From Escherichia phage Av-05, in sequence record KM190144: a stretch of DNA of 64,000 nt; one strand, written 5' to 3'. A program made the translations under genes and the position numbers. This document shows, piece after piece, positions 14,894 through 47,547 of the stretch; the first letter of the stretch is position 1, and every line of letters begins with the position of its first letter. A model generated the notes under the pieces. That model made no database searches, was not told the origin of the DNA, and worked only from the letters and a program-made list of their open reading frames with translations.

Positions 14894-14958
14894 CAATCGC
14901 ATTCCTAATTATTGATTTTGCTTGGATAATGTGGTAAAATACCTTAACGGGAGTTCTT

Positions 14959-16527: not shown

Positions 16528-17940
16528 ATGGCTTATAATGACAAGGTGGTTGATGTAACAGTCACACTTGGTACTCAACCAATCGACACAAAAGGGTTTG
16601 AAACCCCACTGTTCCTTGCGATCCATAATGTCTTCCCAGAAAGAGTTCGTGCTTATACCGAACTTAGTCAGTTAGTTGATGATGGATTTGCTGTTGGAAC
16701 ACCTGCATACAATTATGCATCTAAGGCATTTTCTGGAACATTCCGTCCACAATATCTGATGATTGGTCGTCAAGGCTTCACCAACACCGTTGTGGATTTT
16801 ACAGGACAAACTAACACAGATCCAGAGACACCTGTTGCATTGAATTTTGTTTCCGGTGCTTACCAGAAAAGCATTATTGTTAACGTTTCAGCTTCCTCTG
16901 AAGCAAATGCGATAGCTACATCTCTGGCAGCTGCGATTAATGCAGACACAACCCTGCAAACAGTACTTACTGCGACAGCAAGTGAAGCCAAAGTAACAAT
17001 TGCTCCAAAAGATGATGGTAAGTTTAGTGTTGGTAAGGACAGTGGCAACATGGTCATCACCAATACCTCTGATGAAACAGTTTCTTCTGTTCTCCCACAG
17101 GTTATGACTGCCAATGAAAACTGGTATTTCGTCAGTACTGAATCCCACACTAAGACATCTATTTTGAGTGCTGCTGCCTTTGCTGCTGCAAATTACAAGA
17201 TGCATGTTTACTCAACTGCTGACGAAAAATCTAAAACTGCCGATACCGATTCTATTGCAGATCAACTCAAAGCATTGCAATACGACACATCTATCGGTAT
17301 GTATGATCCTTTGGCAGACAGTGAGTATCCCGAGGGTGGGATTATCGGAGCGATGGCTTCGAATGACCCTTCCTATGGGGATTCTATCCACCTGAAAACT
17401 ATGGATGGGGTCATTGCTCCAACCTTAAGCGCAACGGAACGTATGACTATCTGGGGTAAGAATCTGAACTTCTACCGCATGATTAATGGTGTGGGATCCT
17501 TCTATGAAGGCAAATGTGCTTCCGGCAATTATGTAGATGTTGTGAGATTTGGTCACTGGCTTAAGTTCCGCACCGAAGAAAGTGTTTTCGGATATATGTC
17601 CCGCAGATCCAACATGGGGCTGTCTGTTAAAATGAGTGATGATGACCTCCCTAACCTGAAGTCTGTCATCATGAATAACCCTATCAACGTAGGTATTTCT
17701 AACGGAGCTATTTTAACAGGTTATGATGAGGTTAACAAGGTCTTCTTCGATCCTGTAATCACAATCCCTCTGCGTGGAAGCATACCCACTAACGATCTGG
17801 CAGCACGTACACTTAACAACGTGAAAGTGGAACTAGTGTACAACACACCACTACATTTTGTCAAGATCCGTATGACTGTCATGCTGGACAAAACAGGTTC
17901 AAATTCTGGCAACGCACAGACAGTAACAGCAGGAGTGTAA
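16528..17940 (+). CDS. Tail sheath protein (putative)
   Basis: 470 aa acidic protein directly upstream of a 157-aa tube-sized gene, chaperones and tape measure; AAGAGG RBS. Confidence 0.5.
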   Translation: MAYNDKVVDVTVTLGTQPIDTKGFETPLFLAIHNVFPERVRAYTELSQLVDDGFAVGTPAYNYASKAFSGTFRPQYLMIGRQGFTNTVVDFTGQTNTDPETPVALNFVSGAYQKSIIVNVSASSEANAIATSLAAAINADTTLQTVLTATASEAKVTIAPKDDGKFSVGKDSGNMVITNTSDETVSSVLPQVMTANENWYFVSTESHTKTSILSAAAFAAANYKMHVYSTADEKSKTADTDSIADQLKALQYDTSIGMYDPLADSEYPEGGIIGAMASNDPSYGDSIHLKTMDGVIAPTLSATERMTIWGKNLNFYRMINGVGSFYEGKCASGNYVDVVRFGHWLKFRTEESVFGYMSRRSNMGLSVKMSDDDLPNLKSVIMNNPINVGISNGAILTGYDEVNKVFFDPVITIPLRGSIPTNDLAARTLNNVKVELVYNTPLHFVKIRMTVMLDKTGSNSGNAQTVTAGV

Positions 17941-17943
17941 TAA

Positions 17944-18417
17944 ATGAATACAGCTATTCTAACGCCGTATGCATATGACCCTAAAAAAGTAAAACTGTAT
18001 CTGATGACTCAAAGAGTAACAGGATTCGCAGCGGACACGAAAATTGTGGTGTCCCGTAATGAAGACAATATCATTCCCCACATGGGGGTTGATGGTGAGC
18101 TATCTGCTGCACTGTCCCGTAACCAATCTGGTGTTATGACGGTTTCTCTTCAGAATACAGCATCATGGAATGGTAATTTAGCAAACTGGCAAAAACAAGC
18201 ATCCGTAACTGGTCTTATTTTCTTCCCTGTTCTTCTGGAAGGTTCTCAAGGTATGGGTTTGAGTACAATTGGATGGATTCAGAAGCAGCCTGACCTTACT
18301 TACGGAACGGAAGTTGGTCAAATGGACTGGGAAATTGGTATTCTGGATGCTTGGTTGAGTCCTGATACTCTGTCCTCTGTTGGCTTCGGCCTCGCTGGAC
18401 TTTCCGGTATCGTTTAA
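17944..18417 (+). CDS. Tail tube protein (putative)
   Basis: 157 aa, follows sheath gene by 3 nt. Confidence 0.5.
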   Translation: MNTAILTPYAYDPKKVKLYLMTQRVTGFAADTKIVVSRNEDNIIPHMGVDGELSAALSRNQSGVMTVSLQNTASWNGNLANWQKQASVTGLIFFPVLLEGSQGMGLSTIGWIQKQPDLTYGTEVGQMDWEIGILDAWLSPDTLSSVGFGLAGLSGIV

Positions 18418-18426
18418 TAATTTCGT

Positions 18427-18960
18427 GTGCCACATGGATGTGGCCTTTATACACGTAAGGATAATTCAACTTTTAAAGACGCAGGAGCGTGCATGAAAAT
18501 TAGACAAACAACTGAAATTGACCTCGCAGGTCACAACTTTGTTATCACACATTGGTCTCCAACAAAAGCATTTAAAAATATTCCTAAGATAGGACGTTAT
18601 ATTGCTGTTCCAATGGCATCCATCTCTGGGGCACTTATGTCTGGTGGGCAGAATCTTTCTGATGCTATCCCAACAGCAGTATTATACCTGTTTGACCAGA
18701 TGGAGCAAGATAATATTGAAGAACTTTTTGCCTTAATTCTGGACGATGTATCTGTTGATGGTATGGCAGGTAAGGTAGACATTGATGATATTTTCCAAGG
18801 GAAGATGATGGACCTTATCAAACTCGTGGCAAAAGTGCTGGAGGTTAATTACGGCTGTTTTTTCACGAAAGACGGTTTCGCAAGCCTTCAGGATCTTCTG
18901 GGACGCCTGGGTCAGACCCATCAACTGAACACGATGGATCAGGCAGAGGAAGCGGAGTAA
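18427..18960 (+). CDS. Tail assembly chaperone (putative)
   Basis: 177 aa acidic protein between tube and tape measure. Confidence 0.4.
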   Translation: MPHGCGLYTRKDNSTFKDAGACMKIRQTTEIDLAGHNFVITHWSPTKAFKNIPKIGRYIAVPMASISGALMSGGQNLSDAIPTAVLYLFDQMEQDNIEELFALILDDVSVDGMAGKVDIDDIFQGKMMDLIKLVAKVLEVNYGCFFTKDGFASLQDLLGRLGQTHQLNTMDQAEEAE

Positions 18961-18995
18961 CACCGTCCAATATTTCGAAAGTTGTCCTGAGAGCT

Positions 18996-19238
18996 ATGAA
19001 TTATGCAAGAAAAAATAGCTCATTGACTTGGTTCGATTATTTGTGGTGTCGTGCTCTGAAGAGTTTTAAAGGTGAGTCTTATTCCTCACTTGAGTCTGCT
19101 GACATGGCCTACCTGCTTAAACTGAACGAATATCTTGATATTGAAGAGTTTATCCAAGACGTACAGGAGAGAGAGGAACAAAGTGCAGCCAATGCTGCCG
19201 CCGCTGCAAATAGGTCGCGCCGAGGTAGAAGAGGTTAA
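18996..19238 (+). CDS. Small tail assembly protein (putative)
   Basis: 80 aa, immediately upstream of tape measure. Confidence 0.35.
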   Translation: MNYARKNSSLTWFDYLWCRALKSFKGESYSSLESADMAYLLKLNEYLDIEEFIQDVQEREEQSAANAAAAANRSRRGRRG

Positions 19239-19243
19239 TCTCA

Positions 19244-19278
19244 AGCCAGGTTCCTTCTCGGAACCTGGCTTTTTTATT
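19244..19278 (+). terminator. Rho-independent terminator
   Basis: AGCCAGGTTCC-TTCTC-GGAACCTGGCT 11-bp perfect stem then TTTTTTATT. Confidence 0.65.
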
Positions 19279-19289
19279 GAGGAAAATCT

Positions 19290-21671
19290 ATGGCGAATAT
19301 CATAGTAACTAAAACCGTAAATACTGTCGAGTGGTCTGTAGATCGCACCAGTTACGGTCGTGCAATGAAAGCTATAAAATCCCTGAAGAAGGAATGGGAA
19401 AAGACTAACAGAGCTTTCACTTCTAATAAAAGTAATCCGGCAGCAATTTATAAACGTTCTGCACAAGAGGCTCGTCTTGTAGCTAAAAGATTACACCAAA
19501 CTGAACGTGCAGAGCAAGCAAAATCTACGGCACATGCTATTGCAATGGCAAAAAAGGAAGCTCGTGCTCGTGAACAAATAGCTAAAGTTGAGAGCGCGAG
19601 AAGAAAGCAAGCAGTAGCCAGACTAACAAACAGAAGAACACCCGAAGAACAAAAAGAATATAATGCATTAAAATCAAAGTTGAAGCAGATGGAAAAAACA
19701 GGTTCTGGGTATGGGACAAATCCAGAAATATCTGCTGCCCGTCAAGCAAGATTGCAGCAAGAACTTGCAGCAAGGAAGTCTTCAGGATCTGCCTCTGGTA
19801 TTGTTGGGGATCCTAATAGTCGCCACGACCCAAGTCTTGTGGCTGCTCAGAACTCTGCTATGGAACGCTATCATAAATCTATCCCGAAAGAAAAAACAGC
19901 GGATGAGATTAAGGCAGAAAAAGATGCTAATAAGAAGAAAGAAAGAGAAGCGTTAAGAGCAGAAAGAATAAAGGCTGCAAAACAATCAACGATTGCTAAT
20001 GCTGCTGTAAGACTTCGTGCTAAGTATGGTGATGATTTCAGATCTAAAATTAAAGGTTATGATGATCTGGAAAAGAGATTTATGCAAAGCCAGACTATGA
20101 GAGCTTCTAATTTCCGTGCTGAATTGGCAGCAATGGAAACAGGACTCCGCAAAGCTAAGGCAAATACACTATCTCTTGATCAAGGATTGAAGAACCTTCG
20201 TAGCACATTAATTAGTGTTTCTGCTGCATACGGGGCTTTTAATGCTGCCGCAAGTGTTGTGAAAACAGGGCAATTCTTTCAAGGCATGGAAGCTACCATG
20301 TTAATGGTTTCTGATGACTCAGAAGAAGCTGCGAAAAGAATGCAGTTTGTTCGGGAGCAATCTTACAGATTGGGTTTGGATTTAAAAACCGCCGCTCAAG
20401 GTTATACCCAAATGGCTATCTCTGCTAACGGTGTTTTGAGCAAGGCGCAAAATGACGAACTGTTCAAAGGCCTCTCAGAATATGCTACTGCACTTCAGGT
20501 TGATCCTGTAAAATACCAGCGTGGTATCACTGCTATCCAACAAATGATGGGTAAAGGTCAGATCATGGCTGAGGAGTTAAAATCACAACTTTCCGAAGGT
20601 ATTCCAGGTTCTCTTAATGTATTCCTTAAAGCCACACAAGAAGCATTCAATGATTCATCTATAGACATTGCAAAATTAATGGATATGATGAAGAATGGAG
20701 AGCTAAAGGCTTCAAAAATTCTTCCTTTGGTTGCTAAGTATTATGCCGAGGCCGCAAGAAAAGGTGGTGCACTTACCAAGGCACAACAAAGCAACCGTGT
20801 TGCTATGCAGCGTTTACAACAAACGTGGATGAACTTTCAGAATCAAATATTTGAAAGTGGTTTTGGTGAAGCCTTGACAGACACGTTTAACAATCTGGCA
20901 AAAGCCTTGGATAGTAATGGGGAATTGGCACGTAACATAGGACAGATAACAAAAGGTTTTGTTGAAGGCTTTATGTGGGTATTCTACCAAATATATAATA
21001 TCTTTATAGATATTGACGGGATTTTGCAGAGATATATCCCAATTTTCAGAAGAAATGGTGATGAATTAGGGAAGGCTTGGGAATGGACAGGAATGGCTAT
21101 AGGAGCTTTGTTCTTCGCCACTTCGCTAGGTAGAGTTTTCACTATCTTATCTAAAATCGCAGGACTTTCGAAGTCTCTCAAATTTTTGAAAACACTTGGT
21201 GGTGGGGTAGCTACGCCAACCGCTCCAAGCAAAGGCCCGTGGGGGGGAGGTGGATCTGGAAAAGGATCATTTCCGTTTTTCTTAAATCCCTATGCTGCTG
21301 CAACAGTTTGGGGTTTGGATTATGCGGTCTCCACTGATAGTGAGAAAGATGATAAAAAGCGGCAGCTTGGTAATGCCTATTCCTATGGTAGTGGTGACTT
21401 CATGGCTGTGGTTGGAGGGATGTTAACAAACTGGTGGTCATCCCTGTGGGCTGGGCATATGCAGGATAAAGCTAACTATCTCCAATCCCATAATCTAATG
21501 CCTGGTGGTTCGACGGGTCAAACTGTAGCCCCTATGGTCATTCCTACCGAGCCTGTCAGTGGTGAAATAACCATTAAAATAGATGCTGGTGAATTACGCA
21601 ATATGATTGATCAGCAAATAGAGACAGCCAATATGGATAACATTAATCTTATTCTCGCTGTCCCTCAATAA
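19290..21671 (+). CDS. Tail tape measure protein
   Basis: 793 aa, long A/K/E/R-rich coiled-coil N-half, hydrophobic and Gly-rich segments (GGGVATPTAPSKGPWGGGGSGKG). Confidence 0.7.
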   Translation: MANIIVTKTVNTVEWSVDRTSYGRAMKAIKSLKKEWEKTNRAFTSNKSNPAAIYKRSAQEARLVAKRLHQTERAEQAKSTAHAIAMAKKEARAREQIAKVESARRKQAVARLTNRRTPEEQKEYNALKSKLKQMEKTGSGYGTNPEISAARQARLQQELAARKSSGSASGIVGDPNSRHDPSLVAAQNSAMERYHKSIPKEKTADEIKAEKDANKKKEREALRAERIKAAKQSTIANAAVRLRAKYGDDFRSKIKGYDDLEKRFMQSQTMRASNFRAELAAMETGLRKAKANTLSLDQGLKNLRSTLISVSAAYGAFNAAASVVKTGQFFQGMEATMLMVSDDSEEAAKRMQFVREQSYRLGLDLKTAAQGYTQMAISANGVLSKAQNDELFKGLSEYATALQVDPVKYQRGITAIQQMMGKGQIMAEELKSQLSEGIPGSLNVFLKATQEAFNDSSIDIAKLMDMMKNGELKASKILPLVAKYYAEAARKGGALTKAQQSNRVAMQRLQQTWMNFQNQIFESGFGEALTDTFNNLAKALDSNGELARNIGQITKGFVEGFMWVFYQIYNIFIDIDGILQRYIPIFRRNGDELGKAWEWTGMAIGALFFATSLGRVFTILSKIAGLSKSLKFLKTLGGGVATPTAPSKGPWGGGGSGKGSFPFFLNPYAAATVWGLDYAVSTDSEKDDKKRQLGNAYSYGSGDFMAVVGGMLTNWWSSLWAGHMQDKANYLQSHNLMPGGSTGQTVAPMVIPTEPVSGEITIKIDAGELRNMIDQQIETANMDNINLILAVPQ

Positions 21672-21675
21672 TTTG

Positions 21676-21700
21676 AAGGGGCTTTTGCCCCTTTTATTGT
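21676..21700 (+). terminator. Rho-independent terminator
   Basis: AAGGGGC-TTTT-GCCCCTT hairpin followed by TTATTGTTTT. Confidence 0.55.
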
Positions 21701-21751
21701 TTTAATAAAAGATTTATGATAAAATCATACAAGAACAAGTGAGGGTTTTTC

Positions 21752-25213: not shown

Positions 25214-25216
25214 TGG

Positions 25217-25245
25217 AAAGGGGCATAAGCCCCTTTATTTGTGTT
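25217..25245 (+). terminator. Rho-independent terminator
   Basis: AGGGGC-ATAA-GCCCCT hairpin then TTATTTGTGTTT. Confidence 0.5.
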
Positions 25246-25318
25246 TACTATTTATAATTAAGACATATTGTGGTAAAATAACCACATCTTATAATAATTT
25301 ACAAGAGGAGGCATAATC

Positions 25319-34099: not shown

Positions 34100-36043
34100 A
34101 TGTATCCAATCCCTTGTTTTTATATCATAATTTCCAATAACCCTCTAGCCAACTCCATTTCCTTAACCTCCCTCGGTACGTGTCTTAAAGGAGGCAAAGC
34201 ACAATTAATATGGTCTGTTGTGCCAGAAGGTGCAGACTTGCATGATATAACATTTACACCAGACAAACCGACAATTGTATCTGTTGATCCTACGGGGCTA
34301 GTATCTTTTCTTGAAGATGGTGATTTTATCATCACAATGTCTGCAAAGACTGGCAAAGGAGATGAAGAAAAGACCTTAACAGCACAAATCAATGGGCATG
34401 TTGACACATTACGCATTGATGTTGATCCTATAGGCAGCAGAAGCATTAGTGATAGATTCTGGTTTGTCTACAAAGGCGACCCGTCTTTTGACCCAGGCAA
34501 TCCGAATCCGAATATGATTGGCTTTAACATCTCCCCAGCAGAAGTTATGGAGGAGGATGACTTTTATGTCACCGCAGTTTCTGAAACACCTGATATATTA
34601 AGTCTGGCTCCTAGTGGTATCATTACATGTGTTAGTAAAGGTGTTGGGCATTGTGGCATGAAAGGAACCTATAAAGATGTGACAGTAACGACGCTTACCG
34701 ATGTATATGTGGATATAGCACCAGCACTTATAAATCCGACTGCTGTAGCCAACAGTTATGGTGACGTTAAGATAGCGTGGGATGTTCAATTTCCCTCCTC
34801 GGATGATATTTATACCGTAGAGGTTTATGACCCTAAAATGCCAGATGCTGTGTGGAGTAAGAAAACCAAAGACACATTCGTATTCTTTGATGTTACAGAA
34901 TCAGTGCCTATCTTTGGATTCGCCCCTACATATCTTGATGTGGTCATCAAAGGATCAAATCCAGAAACACAACCTATAAGTCCTGATAGGAATATAACTG
35001 TTGACGACTCTTTTGTTAAAGAGGTGCTTGTTTTTGCTGGCGGTGATAACGCAGCAGCGCATTTTAACTCTTTTTCTGGTAGGGATAAAACAACCCAAAG
35101 TGCGACCACAGCACGTAATGAGTATGCTCTCAGCAAAGGGTTTTACCCAGCAGAAGTATTACCAATCAATGCCGCATTCATTACATCTTGTGCAGAAGCA
35201 CAGGCAAACTCCTCTACAGGGTTAGCCACAAATTACTGGTATGACGTTAGTTCCTCCACAGCAGGTCCGTGTCTAACACAGTTCCTTGCGAAGGTTAAAC
35301 CTTATAAGGATAAAATTAAGGCTGTTTTCTGGTCGTTAGGGGAACAAGATGCCATGGTAGCAGCAGCAAAACAAGAGGGAAAACATAGCGATGATGCTCG
35401 TTTTCAGACTGCTATGACCGCCATCTTTGAAAATATCCGATCTGTTATCACAAATCCTGAAGCCAAGATTGTATTGCAGACACTTGGCAGATGCTTTGAT
35501 GATGATGTGGAAGTAGGTGGTGTTGAGTGGTATCGTTATAGAAATATTCAACAACAGTTAGTGGTAGATTCCAAGGGTGGAGTTATAATTGGCTCTTGGG
35601 TTGATGGCGCTGAACACTACGGCAATTATGTTGTTTCAGGGGCAGGGGGTGGTTTAAGAATACACTACCGACCAACAATTTATAAGAATGCCGCAATATC
35701 CTTGGCTAACATGGAGGACTTGTCGAGCACACCTCCTGCTTGGGTGGATATGAAAGTTCCCATGGGAGGAAAGGCAGTAAGGCAAGCAAACCAAGATATT
35801 CTTTTATCATGGGATACCAGAGACTACAGCAAGTTCTCTCTTTTTAACTTTGATGTCCTGACAGGGGCTGTTATATCCCAACAAACATTGACCACCAATA
35901 GTTACACATTTACCTACGCAGATCAAGTAAAACAGTACGGGTATGCTGCGGGTACAGTTTTGTTTGGTGTTGCATATGTTCAAACAACCAGTAAAGGTGA
36001 TATTACATCTCCGTTGGCGAAATTCAATATTAATGTAGCGTGA
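34100..36043 (+). CDS. Tail fibre/spike protein with Ig-like and SGNH/SASA-like esterase domains (putative)
   Basis: GGAGG RBS 4 nt before ATG 34100 (track GTG 34076 is inside terminator hairpin); VLVFAGGDNA and FWSLGEQDA resemble SASA/SGNH esterase motifs. Confidence 0.4.
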   Translation: MYPIPCFYIIISNNPLANSISLTSLGTCLKGGKAQLIWSVVPEGADLHDITFTPDKPTIVSVDPTGLVSFLEDGDFIITMSAKTGKGDEEKTLTAQINGHVDTLRIDVDPIGSRSISDRFWFVYKGDPSFDPGNPNPNMIGFNISPAEVMEEDDFYVTAVSETPDILSLAPSGIITCVSKGVGHCGMKGTYKDVTVTTLTDVYVDIAPALINPTAVANSYGDVKIAWDVQFPSSDDIYTVEVYDPKMPDAVWSKKTKDTFVFFDVTESVPIFGFAPTYLDVVIKGSNPETQPISPDRNITVDDSFVKEVLVFAGGDNAAAHFNSFSGRDKTTQSATTARNEYALSKGFYPAEVLPINAAFITSCAEAQANSSTGLATNYWYDVSSSTAGPCLTQFLAKVKPYKDKIKAVFWSLGEQDAMVAAAKQEGKHSDDARFQTAMTAIFENIRSVITNPEAKIVLQTLGRCFDDDVEVGGVEWYRYRNIQQQLVVDSKGGVIIGSWVDGAEHYGNYVVSGAGGGLRIHYRPTIYKNAAISLANMEDLSSTPPAWVDMKVPMGGKAVRQANQDILLSWDTRDYSKFSLFNFDVLTGAVISQQTLTTNSYTFTYADQVKQYGYAAGTVLFGVAYVQTTSKGDITSPLAKFNINVA

Positions 36044-36052
36044 TAGCAAAAT

Positions 36053-36077
36053 AAAAGGGAGCTAAAAGCTCCCTTTT
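36053..36077. terminator. Bidirectional Rho-independent terminator between convergent blocks
   Basis: GGGAGC-TAAAA-GCTCCC hairpin flanked by AAAA and TTTT. Confidence 0.6.
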
Positions 36078-36096
36078 ATATTAACAAATGCTACTT

Positions 36097-47214: not shown

Positions 47215-47547
47215 ATGGTAGTAGATAACCCTTCTGACACCCTGGTCGTACCATCCCCGTTTCACCAATTCCCAATGGAACAGGACTCCCATGAGGTCAA
47301 ACAATGAAGCACCACCGTTTTGTTGGTAAGCATTCAGCAGAGAATGTTTAGAACGAGTCCAAATTTTACGCCCATCCATACCTGGAATATAGCGTCTCCC
47401 ATTTGCCTCCCAGAATTTTTCTAACCACTCCCTACGCATTTTCAACCCGAAGTTACTATCCCAGAATGCGTCTATTACAGCCTGTGCTCTATTAAGGGGG
47501 ATACCCAGCATTGCGGCTATCTTAGGAGCTTGTGCTCCATACATGAT
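47215..47547 (-). CDS. DNA polymerase (family A), exon 2
   Basis: IMYGAQAPKIAAMLG...YIPGMDGRKIWTRSKHSLLNAYQQNGGASL parallels T7 gp5 region FLYGAG...IKGLDGRKVHVRSPHAALNTLLQSAG. Confidence 0.6.

Follow-up and report, generated by a model that had tools for sequence, protein, structure and literature searches.

The sequence analysed here is a 64,000-nt stretch of Escherichia phage Av-05 (KM190144), referred to below as the window (64 kb), which derives from a Vequintavirinae (rV5-like) myophage. Its tail region is 94% identical to that of Escherichia phages TH18 and 18-1-2 and about 78% identical to that of Seunavirus 4MG, GAP31, and PVP-SE1. On the + strand, the sheath gene (16528–17940; phrog_205) and the tube gene (17944–18417; phrog_280) precede the zero-frame tail assembly chaperone gene G (18493–18960; PF21822 Phage_TAC_15, E = 1.7e-30; phrog_3840), whose start is the Met at residue 23 of its ORF. 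A −1-frame "T" extension of the chaperone (18858–19238; phrog_10409, E = 1e-46) runs from the slippery heptamer T TTT TTC (18858–18864) to a TAA stop (19236–19238). The stem-loop under study (19243–19271, + strand) begins 4 nt past this stop and is followed by the Shine-Dalgarno sequence GAGGA (19279–19283) and the ATG at 19290 of the 793-aa tail tape measure protein (TMP) gene (19290–21671; phrog_5255, E = 0; PF20155 TMP_3), so that the element lies between chaperone and TMP, where the preliminary description of the locus had placed it. Family searches identified a Dit-like protein, a baseplate plug, and a hub past TMP.

That description had spoken of chaperone genes, and a chaperone is indeed encoded upstream, as a single G/GT pair of the programmed −1 frameshift type. 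The open stretch of the −1 frame spans 18849–19238 and overlaps the end of the chaperone gene, and the slippery heptamer lies in frame near the 3′ end of G; the T extension comprises ~125 codons, and the G stop is 283 nt upstream of the GT stop. Taken together, the open −1 frame and the in-frame heptamer indicate a lambda-type G/GT frameshift pair. All loci examined from the Vequintavirinae, Stephanstirmvirinae, and Plateaulakevirus share an unchanged T TTT TTC, and Barbavirus carries G GGA AAG. On sequence evidence, the 80-aa ORF at 18996–19238 is the distal part of the GT extension and not a separate gene. Public records give the −1-frame part an entry of its own as a "hypothetical protein", with start codons that do not agree; in rV5 it appears as an overlapping ORF. 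Downstream of the slip site no significant stimulatory structure was detected (z = +0.48), and the stem-loop at 19243 was rejected as a frameshift stimulator, being ~380 nt downstream of that site. In lambda, the frameshift cassette likewise lies upstream of the tape measure gene, in the order tube, G, −1-frame T, TMP (Levin 1993; Xu 2004, 2013, 2014; reviewed in PMC5009743), and gpG is in large molar excess over gpGT and TMP (PMC5009743). The Vequintavirinae differ from lambda in that a predicted strong terminator hairpin separates the T stop from the TMP start.

The element at 19243–19278 reads AAGCCAGGTTCC-TTCTC-GGAACCTGGCTT-TTTTATT. Twelve perfect Watson–Crick pairs, seven of them G–C, join 19243–19254 with 19260–19271 around the 5-nt loop UUCUC, an assignment based on both the predicted fold and covariation. 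The U-tract TTTTTTATT (UUUUUUAUU) occupies 19270–19278; its initial two T double as stem closers, and the T run at 19270–19275 is followed by A and then TT (T6-A-TT). A perfect stem with a T-tract had been noted at 19244–19278, and the stem, 11 bp when counted from 19244, proved to extend to 12 bp. The distance of 12 nt from the hairpin to the ribosome-binding site given at the same time does not hold: the stem ends 7 nt before GAGGA, and the T-tract abuts it directly.

Several measures set this hairpin apart from chance. It was ranked first by a terminator scan of the 12–30 kb interval, and the stem-loop alone has a predicted energy of −21.2 kcal/mol (z = −5.9), which 0 of 200 shuffles equalled; with its flanks included, z was −3.7. 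It is the most stable of the terminator-like hairpins in the window, the others ranging from −10.9 to −17.4 kcal/mol. Perfect stems of at least 11 bp with a T-tract occurred at 3 sites in the window, compared with 0 in 30 dinucleotide shuffles of the whole window, both strands being counted. Folding of the flanks predicted a lower helix that extends the stem to ~21 bp in total, with internal loops.

The element therefore bears every sequence hallmark of a strong intrinsic terminator: a G+C-rich stem-loop on the transcribed strand, within the typical range of 5–14 bp for the stem and 3–8 nt for the loop; a U-rich tract of about 7–9 nt directly 3′ of the stem; sense orientation 3′ of a coding region, with all neighbouring genes on the + strand; and a structure that is maintained across homologues where the sequence is not. 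The minus-strand version of the hairpin lacks a T-tract. Transcript 3′ ends would be expected at about 19276–19280. A search of Rfam returned no family above its gathering score for the hairpin region. We attribute a sub-threshold match to L10_leader at 19135–19284 (26.8 bits, with the gathering score at 44; E = 0.17) to chance, the terminator hairpin being what drives it.

A counterpart had already been predicted in phage rV5, where terminator t050 (47469–47508; ΔG −24.2) is the second most stable of 20 (Kropinski et al. 2013, PMC3606486, Table S4) and is annotated at 47471–47508 in the record NC_011041 as a "Rho-independent terminator". Like the Av-05 hairpin, t050 follows the −1-frame chaperone ORF (gp050) and precedes the TMP gene (gp049), and its hairpin is alignable with that of Av-05 (GGGCCGGATTCC-TTTTCT-GGGATCTGGCCC, followed by TTTTTATTAT); in both phages a terminator lies past TMP and a promoter comes next. 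The rV5 hairpin differs in having a G–C stem base, as against A–U in Av-05, and in compensatory or wobble changes at several stem positions. With the syntenic position shared and the hairpins alignable, the Av-05 element is, by sequence comparison, the orthologue of the predicted t050, and hence not new. Table S4 further lists t052 after the tube gene, P051 before the chaperone gene, t049 after TMP, and the late-type P048 after t049, and no promoter before gene 49 (TMP); the same authors gave the rV5 late promoter motif as TggTAaAAtA and did not find T4-type late factors (PMC3606486). Our literature search found no transcriptome or 3′-end study of any Vequintavirinae phage.

We then compared the locus across relatives. 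A hairpin with a T-tract between the GT stop and the TMP start was present in Seunavirus 4MG, PVP-SE1, GAP31, and FENT2, Henunavirus Hena1 and SNUABM_01, Mydovirus KB57 and Mydo, and Vequintavirus FV3 and rV5, as well as in Certrevirus-like genomes, SSBI34, UPEC06, and several IMG/VR contigs. Among the relatives examined, it was absent from the phi92-like Stephanstirmvirinae, in which the GT stop is 11–20 nt from the TMP start, and from Barbavirus and Plateaulakevirus. In an alignment of 16 distinct homologous sequences, 99.4% of stem cells were paired and three stem pairs showed double-sided changes (22 cells). None of 500 column shuffles matched the observed covariation or pairing, and sliding the 3′ partners made pairing collapse to 25–61%. 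G·U pairs made up 27 of 175 stem cells (15%). On the other strand, each of these would be an A·C mismatch, so selection acts on the + sense RNA. A cruciform in double-stranded DNA or a protein-binding palindrome was rejected, since the G·U content makes the structure strand-specific and the loops vary.

The homologous hairpins fall into two types, in which the inner four pairs and the loop have been exchanged wholesale: TTCC/GGAA with a U-rich loop, or AGTC/GACT with a GNRA loop; the loop variants include UUCUC, UUUUCG, GAAA, and GUAA. All 16 distinct homologues carry a T-rich tract downstream of the stem, and the TMP Shine-Dalgarno sequence is conserved as GAGG/AGGA. Across eight genomes from the Seuna-, Henuna-, and Mydovirus groups, the hairpin segment was the most conserved stretch of the locus, with 21–24 of 30 columns invariant as against 1–19 in flanking coding DNA. 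Conservation with covariation thus spans at least 5 genera and, together with the hallmarks above, bears out the strong terminator proposed in the preliminary description as a prediction from sequence. The −1-frame stop lies 0–7 nt from the hairpin in 15 of the 16 homologues; the exception, L036 (IMG/VR UViG 3300026472_000003), has its stop 28 nt upstream of the hairpin. In the part of L036 homologous to 19205–19240 of the window, an in-frame TAA shortens the GT extension by 8 codons, and GGCAGAAGAGGTTAATCTC upstream of the hairpin, now non-coding, is still unchanged.

Certrevirus-like relatives carry a −10/late-type box (TGTGGTAATAT, TGTGATAATAT, GTTATAAT, and TGTATTAT) past the same hairpin. 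A promoter in that place argues that leaky read-through would be a lineage-specific feature and not a universal role of the hairpin. The deeply conserved role may be simply to end the chaperone transcript, and reliance on leakiness would be specific to the Seuna-, Henuna-, Mydo-, and Vequintavirus lineages. A conserved ORF of 38 aa, hydrophobic in character (MTVLILMTLIFIACVEAERKHGPMV...) and served by a −10-like box of its own, is also inserted past the terminator and ahead of TMP in three Certrevirus-like loci (L029, ORF from 2821; L031, from 2817; L032, from 2818); the Av-05 lineage lacks it. In Rheinheimera phage Barba5S (L016), an HNH endonuclease gene lies on the opposite strand (2126–2764) between the chaperone −1-frame ORF and TMP, which indicates that the intergenic site tolerates insertions in other lineages.

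The wider late region gives the element its context. An exact late-promoter-like box (TGTGGTAAAATA) at 14930–14941 is the likely start of a transcription unit running through sheath, tube, and G/GT to the terminator. After the TMP stop, a second terminator-like hairpin with a T-tract (21675–21694; −13.6 kcal/mol), equivalent to rV5 t049, is followed before the baseplate genes by the box TATGATAAAATC (21715–21726), which conforms to the rV5 late motif and is equivalent to rV5 P048. A further exact copy of TGTGGTAAAATA lies at 25269–25280, 3′ of a terminator at 25217–25236; the features at 14930–14941, 21675–21694, and 21715–21726 are on the + strand. At the terminators 21675–21694 and 25217–25236, a late-type box thus occurs within about 20–35 nt, with the next gene thereafter. 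The hairpin at 19243 is the exception, its stem ending 7 nt from the Shine-Dalgarno sequence and 18 nt from the ATG, and because late terminators elsewhere precede a promoter box, the lack of one here stands out. Neither a scan nor reading of the sequence revealed a promoter-like site on the + strand between 18,000 and 19,300. Phi92-like phages have the same arrangement one gene earlier: there a terminator behind the tube gene directly abuts the ribosome-binding site of the tail gene that follows.

TMP consequently stands alone between two terminators. Since no promoter separates it from the hairpin, its expression must depend on read-through, as had been proposed for TMP and the baseplate genes together; for TMP this agrees with the 7 nt between stem and Shine-Dalgarno sequence and with the lack of a promoter-like site, as far as sequence can predict. 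The proposal fails for the baseplate genes, which have their own terminator and TATGATAAAATC box behind TMP, as in rV5 (t049/P048). These genes would restart independently, and the element would gate TMP alone.

Other regulatory features were recorded in the window. Cassettes consisting of a stop codon, a terminator hairpin, a late-type box, and a gene recur at 21672–21751 and 25214–25318 and match rV5 TggTAaAAtA. Allowing up to 1 mismatch, we counted 18 copies of TGGTAAAATA in the window, where 9.0 would be expected. At 36051–36079, a 13-bp palindromic hairpin (ATAAAAGGGAGC-TTTTA-GCTCCCTTTTAT) with A/T tracts on either side marks the junction between the + strand late block, which ends at 36043, and a − strand block; it is probably a bidirectional terminator. 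A similarly strong minus-strand terminator was found at 140–169.

Upstream, the gap between tube and chaperone (18418–18492) holds a weak conserved hairpin, GCCACA-TGGA-TGTGGC (+CTTT), at 18429–18444 on the + strand (−7.6 kcal/mol, poor T-tract), and a −10-like GATAAT, at the place of t052/P051 in rV5. The two phages differ here, a strong terminator with a sigma70/late promoter in rV5 as against the weak hairpin in Av-05, with predictions being compared on both sides; FV3 resembles rV5 in having a strong terminator and a promoter instead. The gap forms a structured element common to Seuna-, Henuna-, Mydo-, and Certrevirus-like phages. Its outer helix (CGTGTG/CACACG) shows T–A to A–T swaps, its inner hairpin at 18429–18444 has compensatory changes in two loci, and an A(A/T)GGAT box is conserved. 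A small hairpin (ACGC-AGGA-GCGT, 18479–18490) presents the chaperone Shine-Dalgarno sequence in its loop, with G–C changed to A–U in 7 of 19 sequences. This gap element may combine a weak terminator with a promoter, or it may serve as a translational operator. Its contents bear on the earlier suggestion that the terminator sets the ratio of sheath, tube, and chaperone to all downstream products. Throttling of TMP stands in that suggestion; with P051 in rV5, and the weak hairpin and −10-like box in Av-05, the ratio affected would mainly be that of chaperone to TMP.

We consider it probable, at roughly 0.6, that an intrinsic terminator ends most sheath/tube/G/GT transcripts before the TMP ribosome-binding site and that TMP is expressed only from read-through. 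RNA polymerase from upstream late promoters would transcribe sheath, tube, and G/GT and then the hairpin with its U-tract, where most complexes would release their RNA at about 19276–19280, just 5′ of the TMP ribosome-binding site. The minority reading through would be the sole source of TMP mRNA in this lineage; that mRNA would end at 21675–21700, after which the late-type promoter would restart transcription for the baseplate genes. The net effect would be far lower transcription of TMP than of the chaperone and shaft proteins, in keeping with demand, since a tail contains few copies of TMP and the chaperone coats TMP in many copies. Termination in vivo, its partial character, and read-through as the supply of TMP mRNA are here predicted from the features of the locus. 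Since a strong terminator is what these features predict, the explanation presupposes enough read-through. A modified RNA polymerase might ignore or over-read terminators, which counts against this best explanation.

Precedents for such an arrangement exist. Terminator Tφ of T7, which lies behind the major capsid gene, is leaky; a P2 F-operon terminator may be a further precedent, which we do not use as evidence. Leaky terminators have been described as tuning structural gene expression in LUZ7, by ONT-cappable-seq, and in T7 (PMC9163698). As proposed for Av-05, they lie inside a late operon after abundantly needed genes, and essential genes downstream are expressed by read-through. The cases differ in that leakiness was measured in T7 and LUZ7, whereas in Av-05 we infer it from sequence, and in that the Av-05 terminator isolates a single gene, TMP, between two terminators. 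Tφ moreover acts on T7 RNA polymerase, whereas Av-05 is a phage without a known RNA polymerase of its own.

Alternatively, an efficient terminator might merely close the shaft/chaperone unit while TMP is transcribed from an unrecognised promoter, either a phage-specific late promoter overlapping the T-tract or one yielding a near-leaderless mRNA. The box found right after the hairpin in Certrevirus-like relatives speaks for such a promoter, as do a TATTAT inside the T-tract in Vequintavirus and UPEC06 and the terminator-then-promoter cassette that prevails elsewhere in the window. In Av-05, however, the stem and the ATG are just 18 nt apart, the hexamers closest to a −10 box (TTTATT and TATTGA) lack the key −11A or −7T, and the scan reported no site. 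A start there would also strip the conserved Shine-Dalgarno sequence from the mRNA, and the rV5 authors list no promoter for gene 49 (PMC3606486). We therefore regard a hidden TMP promoter as unlikely. The conserved upstream sequence GGTAGAAGAGG, which resembles P055, the weakest "late promoter" of rV5, was also considered as a promoter and rejected: it encodes a conserved R-R-G C-terminus and reads CAGGAGAGGA in Vequintavirus.

Read-through could instead be coupled to frameshifting, if a ribosome translating GT masked the 5′ arm on reaching its stop, with RNA polymerase still on the U-tract, and suppressed termination, while a lead ribosome stopped at the end of G left termination efficient. 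Ribosome-modulated intrinsic terminators are known from the pyrE and pyrBI attenuators. The stop 4 nt 5′ of the Av-05 stem is accessible to ribosomes only after slippage at T TTT TTC, and it lies within the ribosome footprint, as in the lambda tR2 position series, in which tR2 placed a few bp past a stop codon is almost completely repressed and regains efficiency with distance (Li et al. 2016, PMC4824070). The close spacing in 15 of 16 homologues fits this geometry. Yet a stop-to-hairpin spacing of 3–4 nt is general in Av-05 (13825, 21675, and 25217) and so not specific, the stop of L036 lies 28 nt upstream, and Certrevirus-like phages keep the geometry despite their TMP promoter. The Av-05 arrangement also differs from tR2, pyrE, and pyrBI in that its stop is reached only after a −1 frameshift, with no leader peptide or metabolite-sensing logic evident. 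We give such coupling little credence, and it is highly doubtful that the −1 frameshift sets read-through, and hence TMP mRNA, so as to tie TMP transcription stoichiometrically to GT synthesis.

A candidate antiterminator hairpin, in which the last GT codons pair with the 5′ arm and the loop of the terminator (GAAGAGG..AAUCU with GGUU..CCUUUUC), was no better than shuffles. Its energies in the Seuna-, Henuna-, Mydo-, and Vequintavirus sequences were −8 to −10.5 kcal/mol (z = −0.1 to −1.0), and in Av-05 it is weakened further (−5.7, z = +0.7), a pattern not expected of an attenuator. Rho-dependent termination in the sparsely translated T region was rejected as well, G exceeding C there with no C-rich, G-poor stretch.

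The hairpin might act after transcription, as a 3′ stabiliser that shields the sheath/tube/chaperone mRNA from 3′ exonucleases once it has been cleaved, or as an RNase III-type site, giving differential stability. This would suit a very stable, strand-specific hairpin with a predicted extended lower helix of about 21 bp including internal loops, and any terminated transcript would carry a protective 3′ hairpin too. The conservation of a U-tract 3′ of the stem in every lineage is, however, a signature of termination; the lower-stem pairing is A/U-rich and its register is not conserved between genera, and Rfam gave nothing but the sub-threshold chance match. A mainly post-transcriptional role thus seems improbable.

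Sequestration of the TMP Shine-Dalgarno sequence in read-through mRNA, by pairing of UCUCAA after the stop codon with UUGAGG, appears in the MFE fold of 19225–19295 (19239–19243 with 19279–19283, including GAGG), but it is exceedingly unlikely as a translational control, because the paired segment in Seunavirus is UUGAGA and leaves the AGGA core free, the Vequintavirus lower helix (AUAAU/AUUAU) lies upstream of the Shine-Dalgarno sequence, so that the pairing is not conserved, and it competes with A–U pairs at the base of the main stem.

Read-through of an intrinsic terminator thus remains our preferred reading, and it carries some practical consequences. For annotation, TMP would be treated as a one-gene unit, and the small "hypothetical protein" upstream of it as the frameshift extension of the chaperone. 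For the engineering of rV5-, PVP-SE1-, or Mydovirus-like therapeutic phages, the site should be left undisturbed and would be a poor place for payload insertion. The element is also a single non-coding feature, and mutating it would leave every protein unaltered. In other respects it is an ordinary terminator that had been predicted before. If it is as leaky as proposed, it would explain how scarce TMP is produced beside abundant shaft proteins and chaperone in rV5-like phages.
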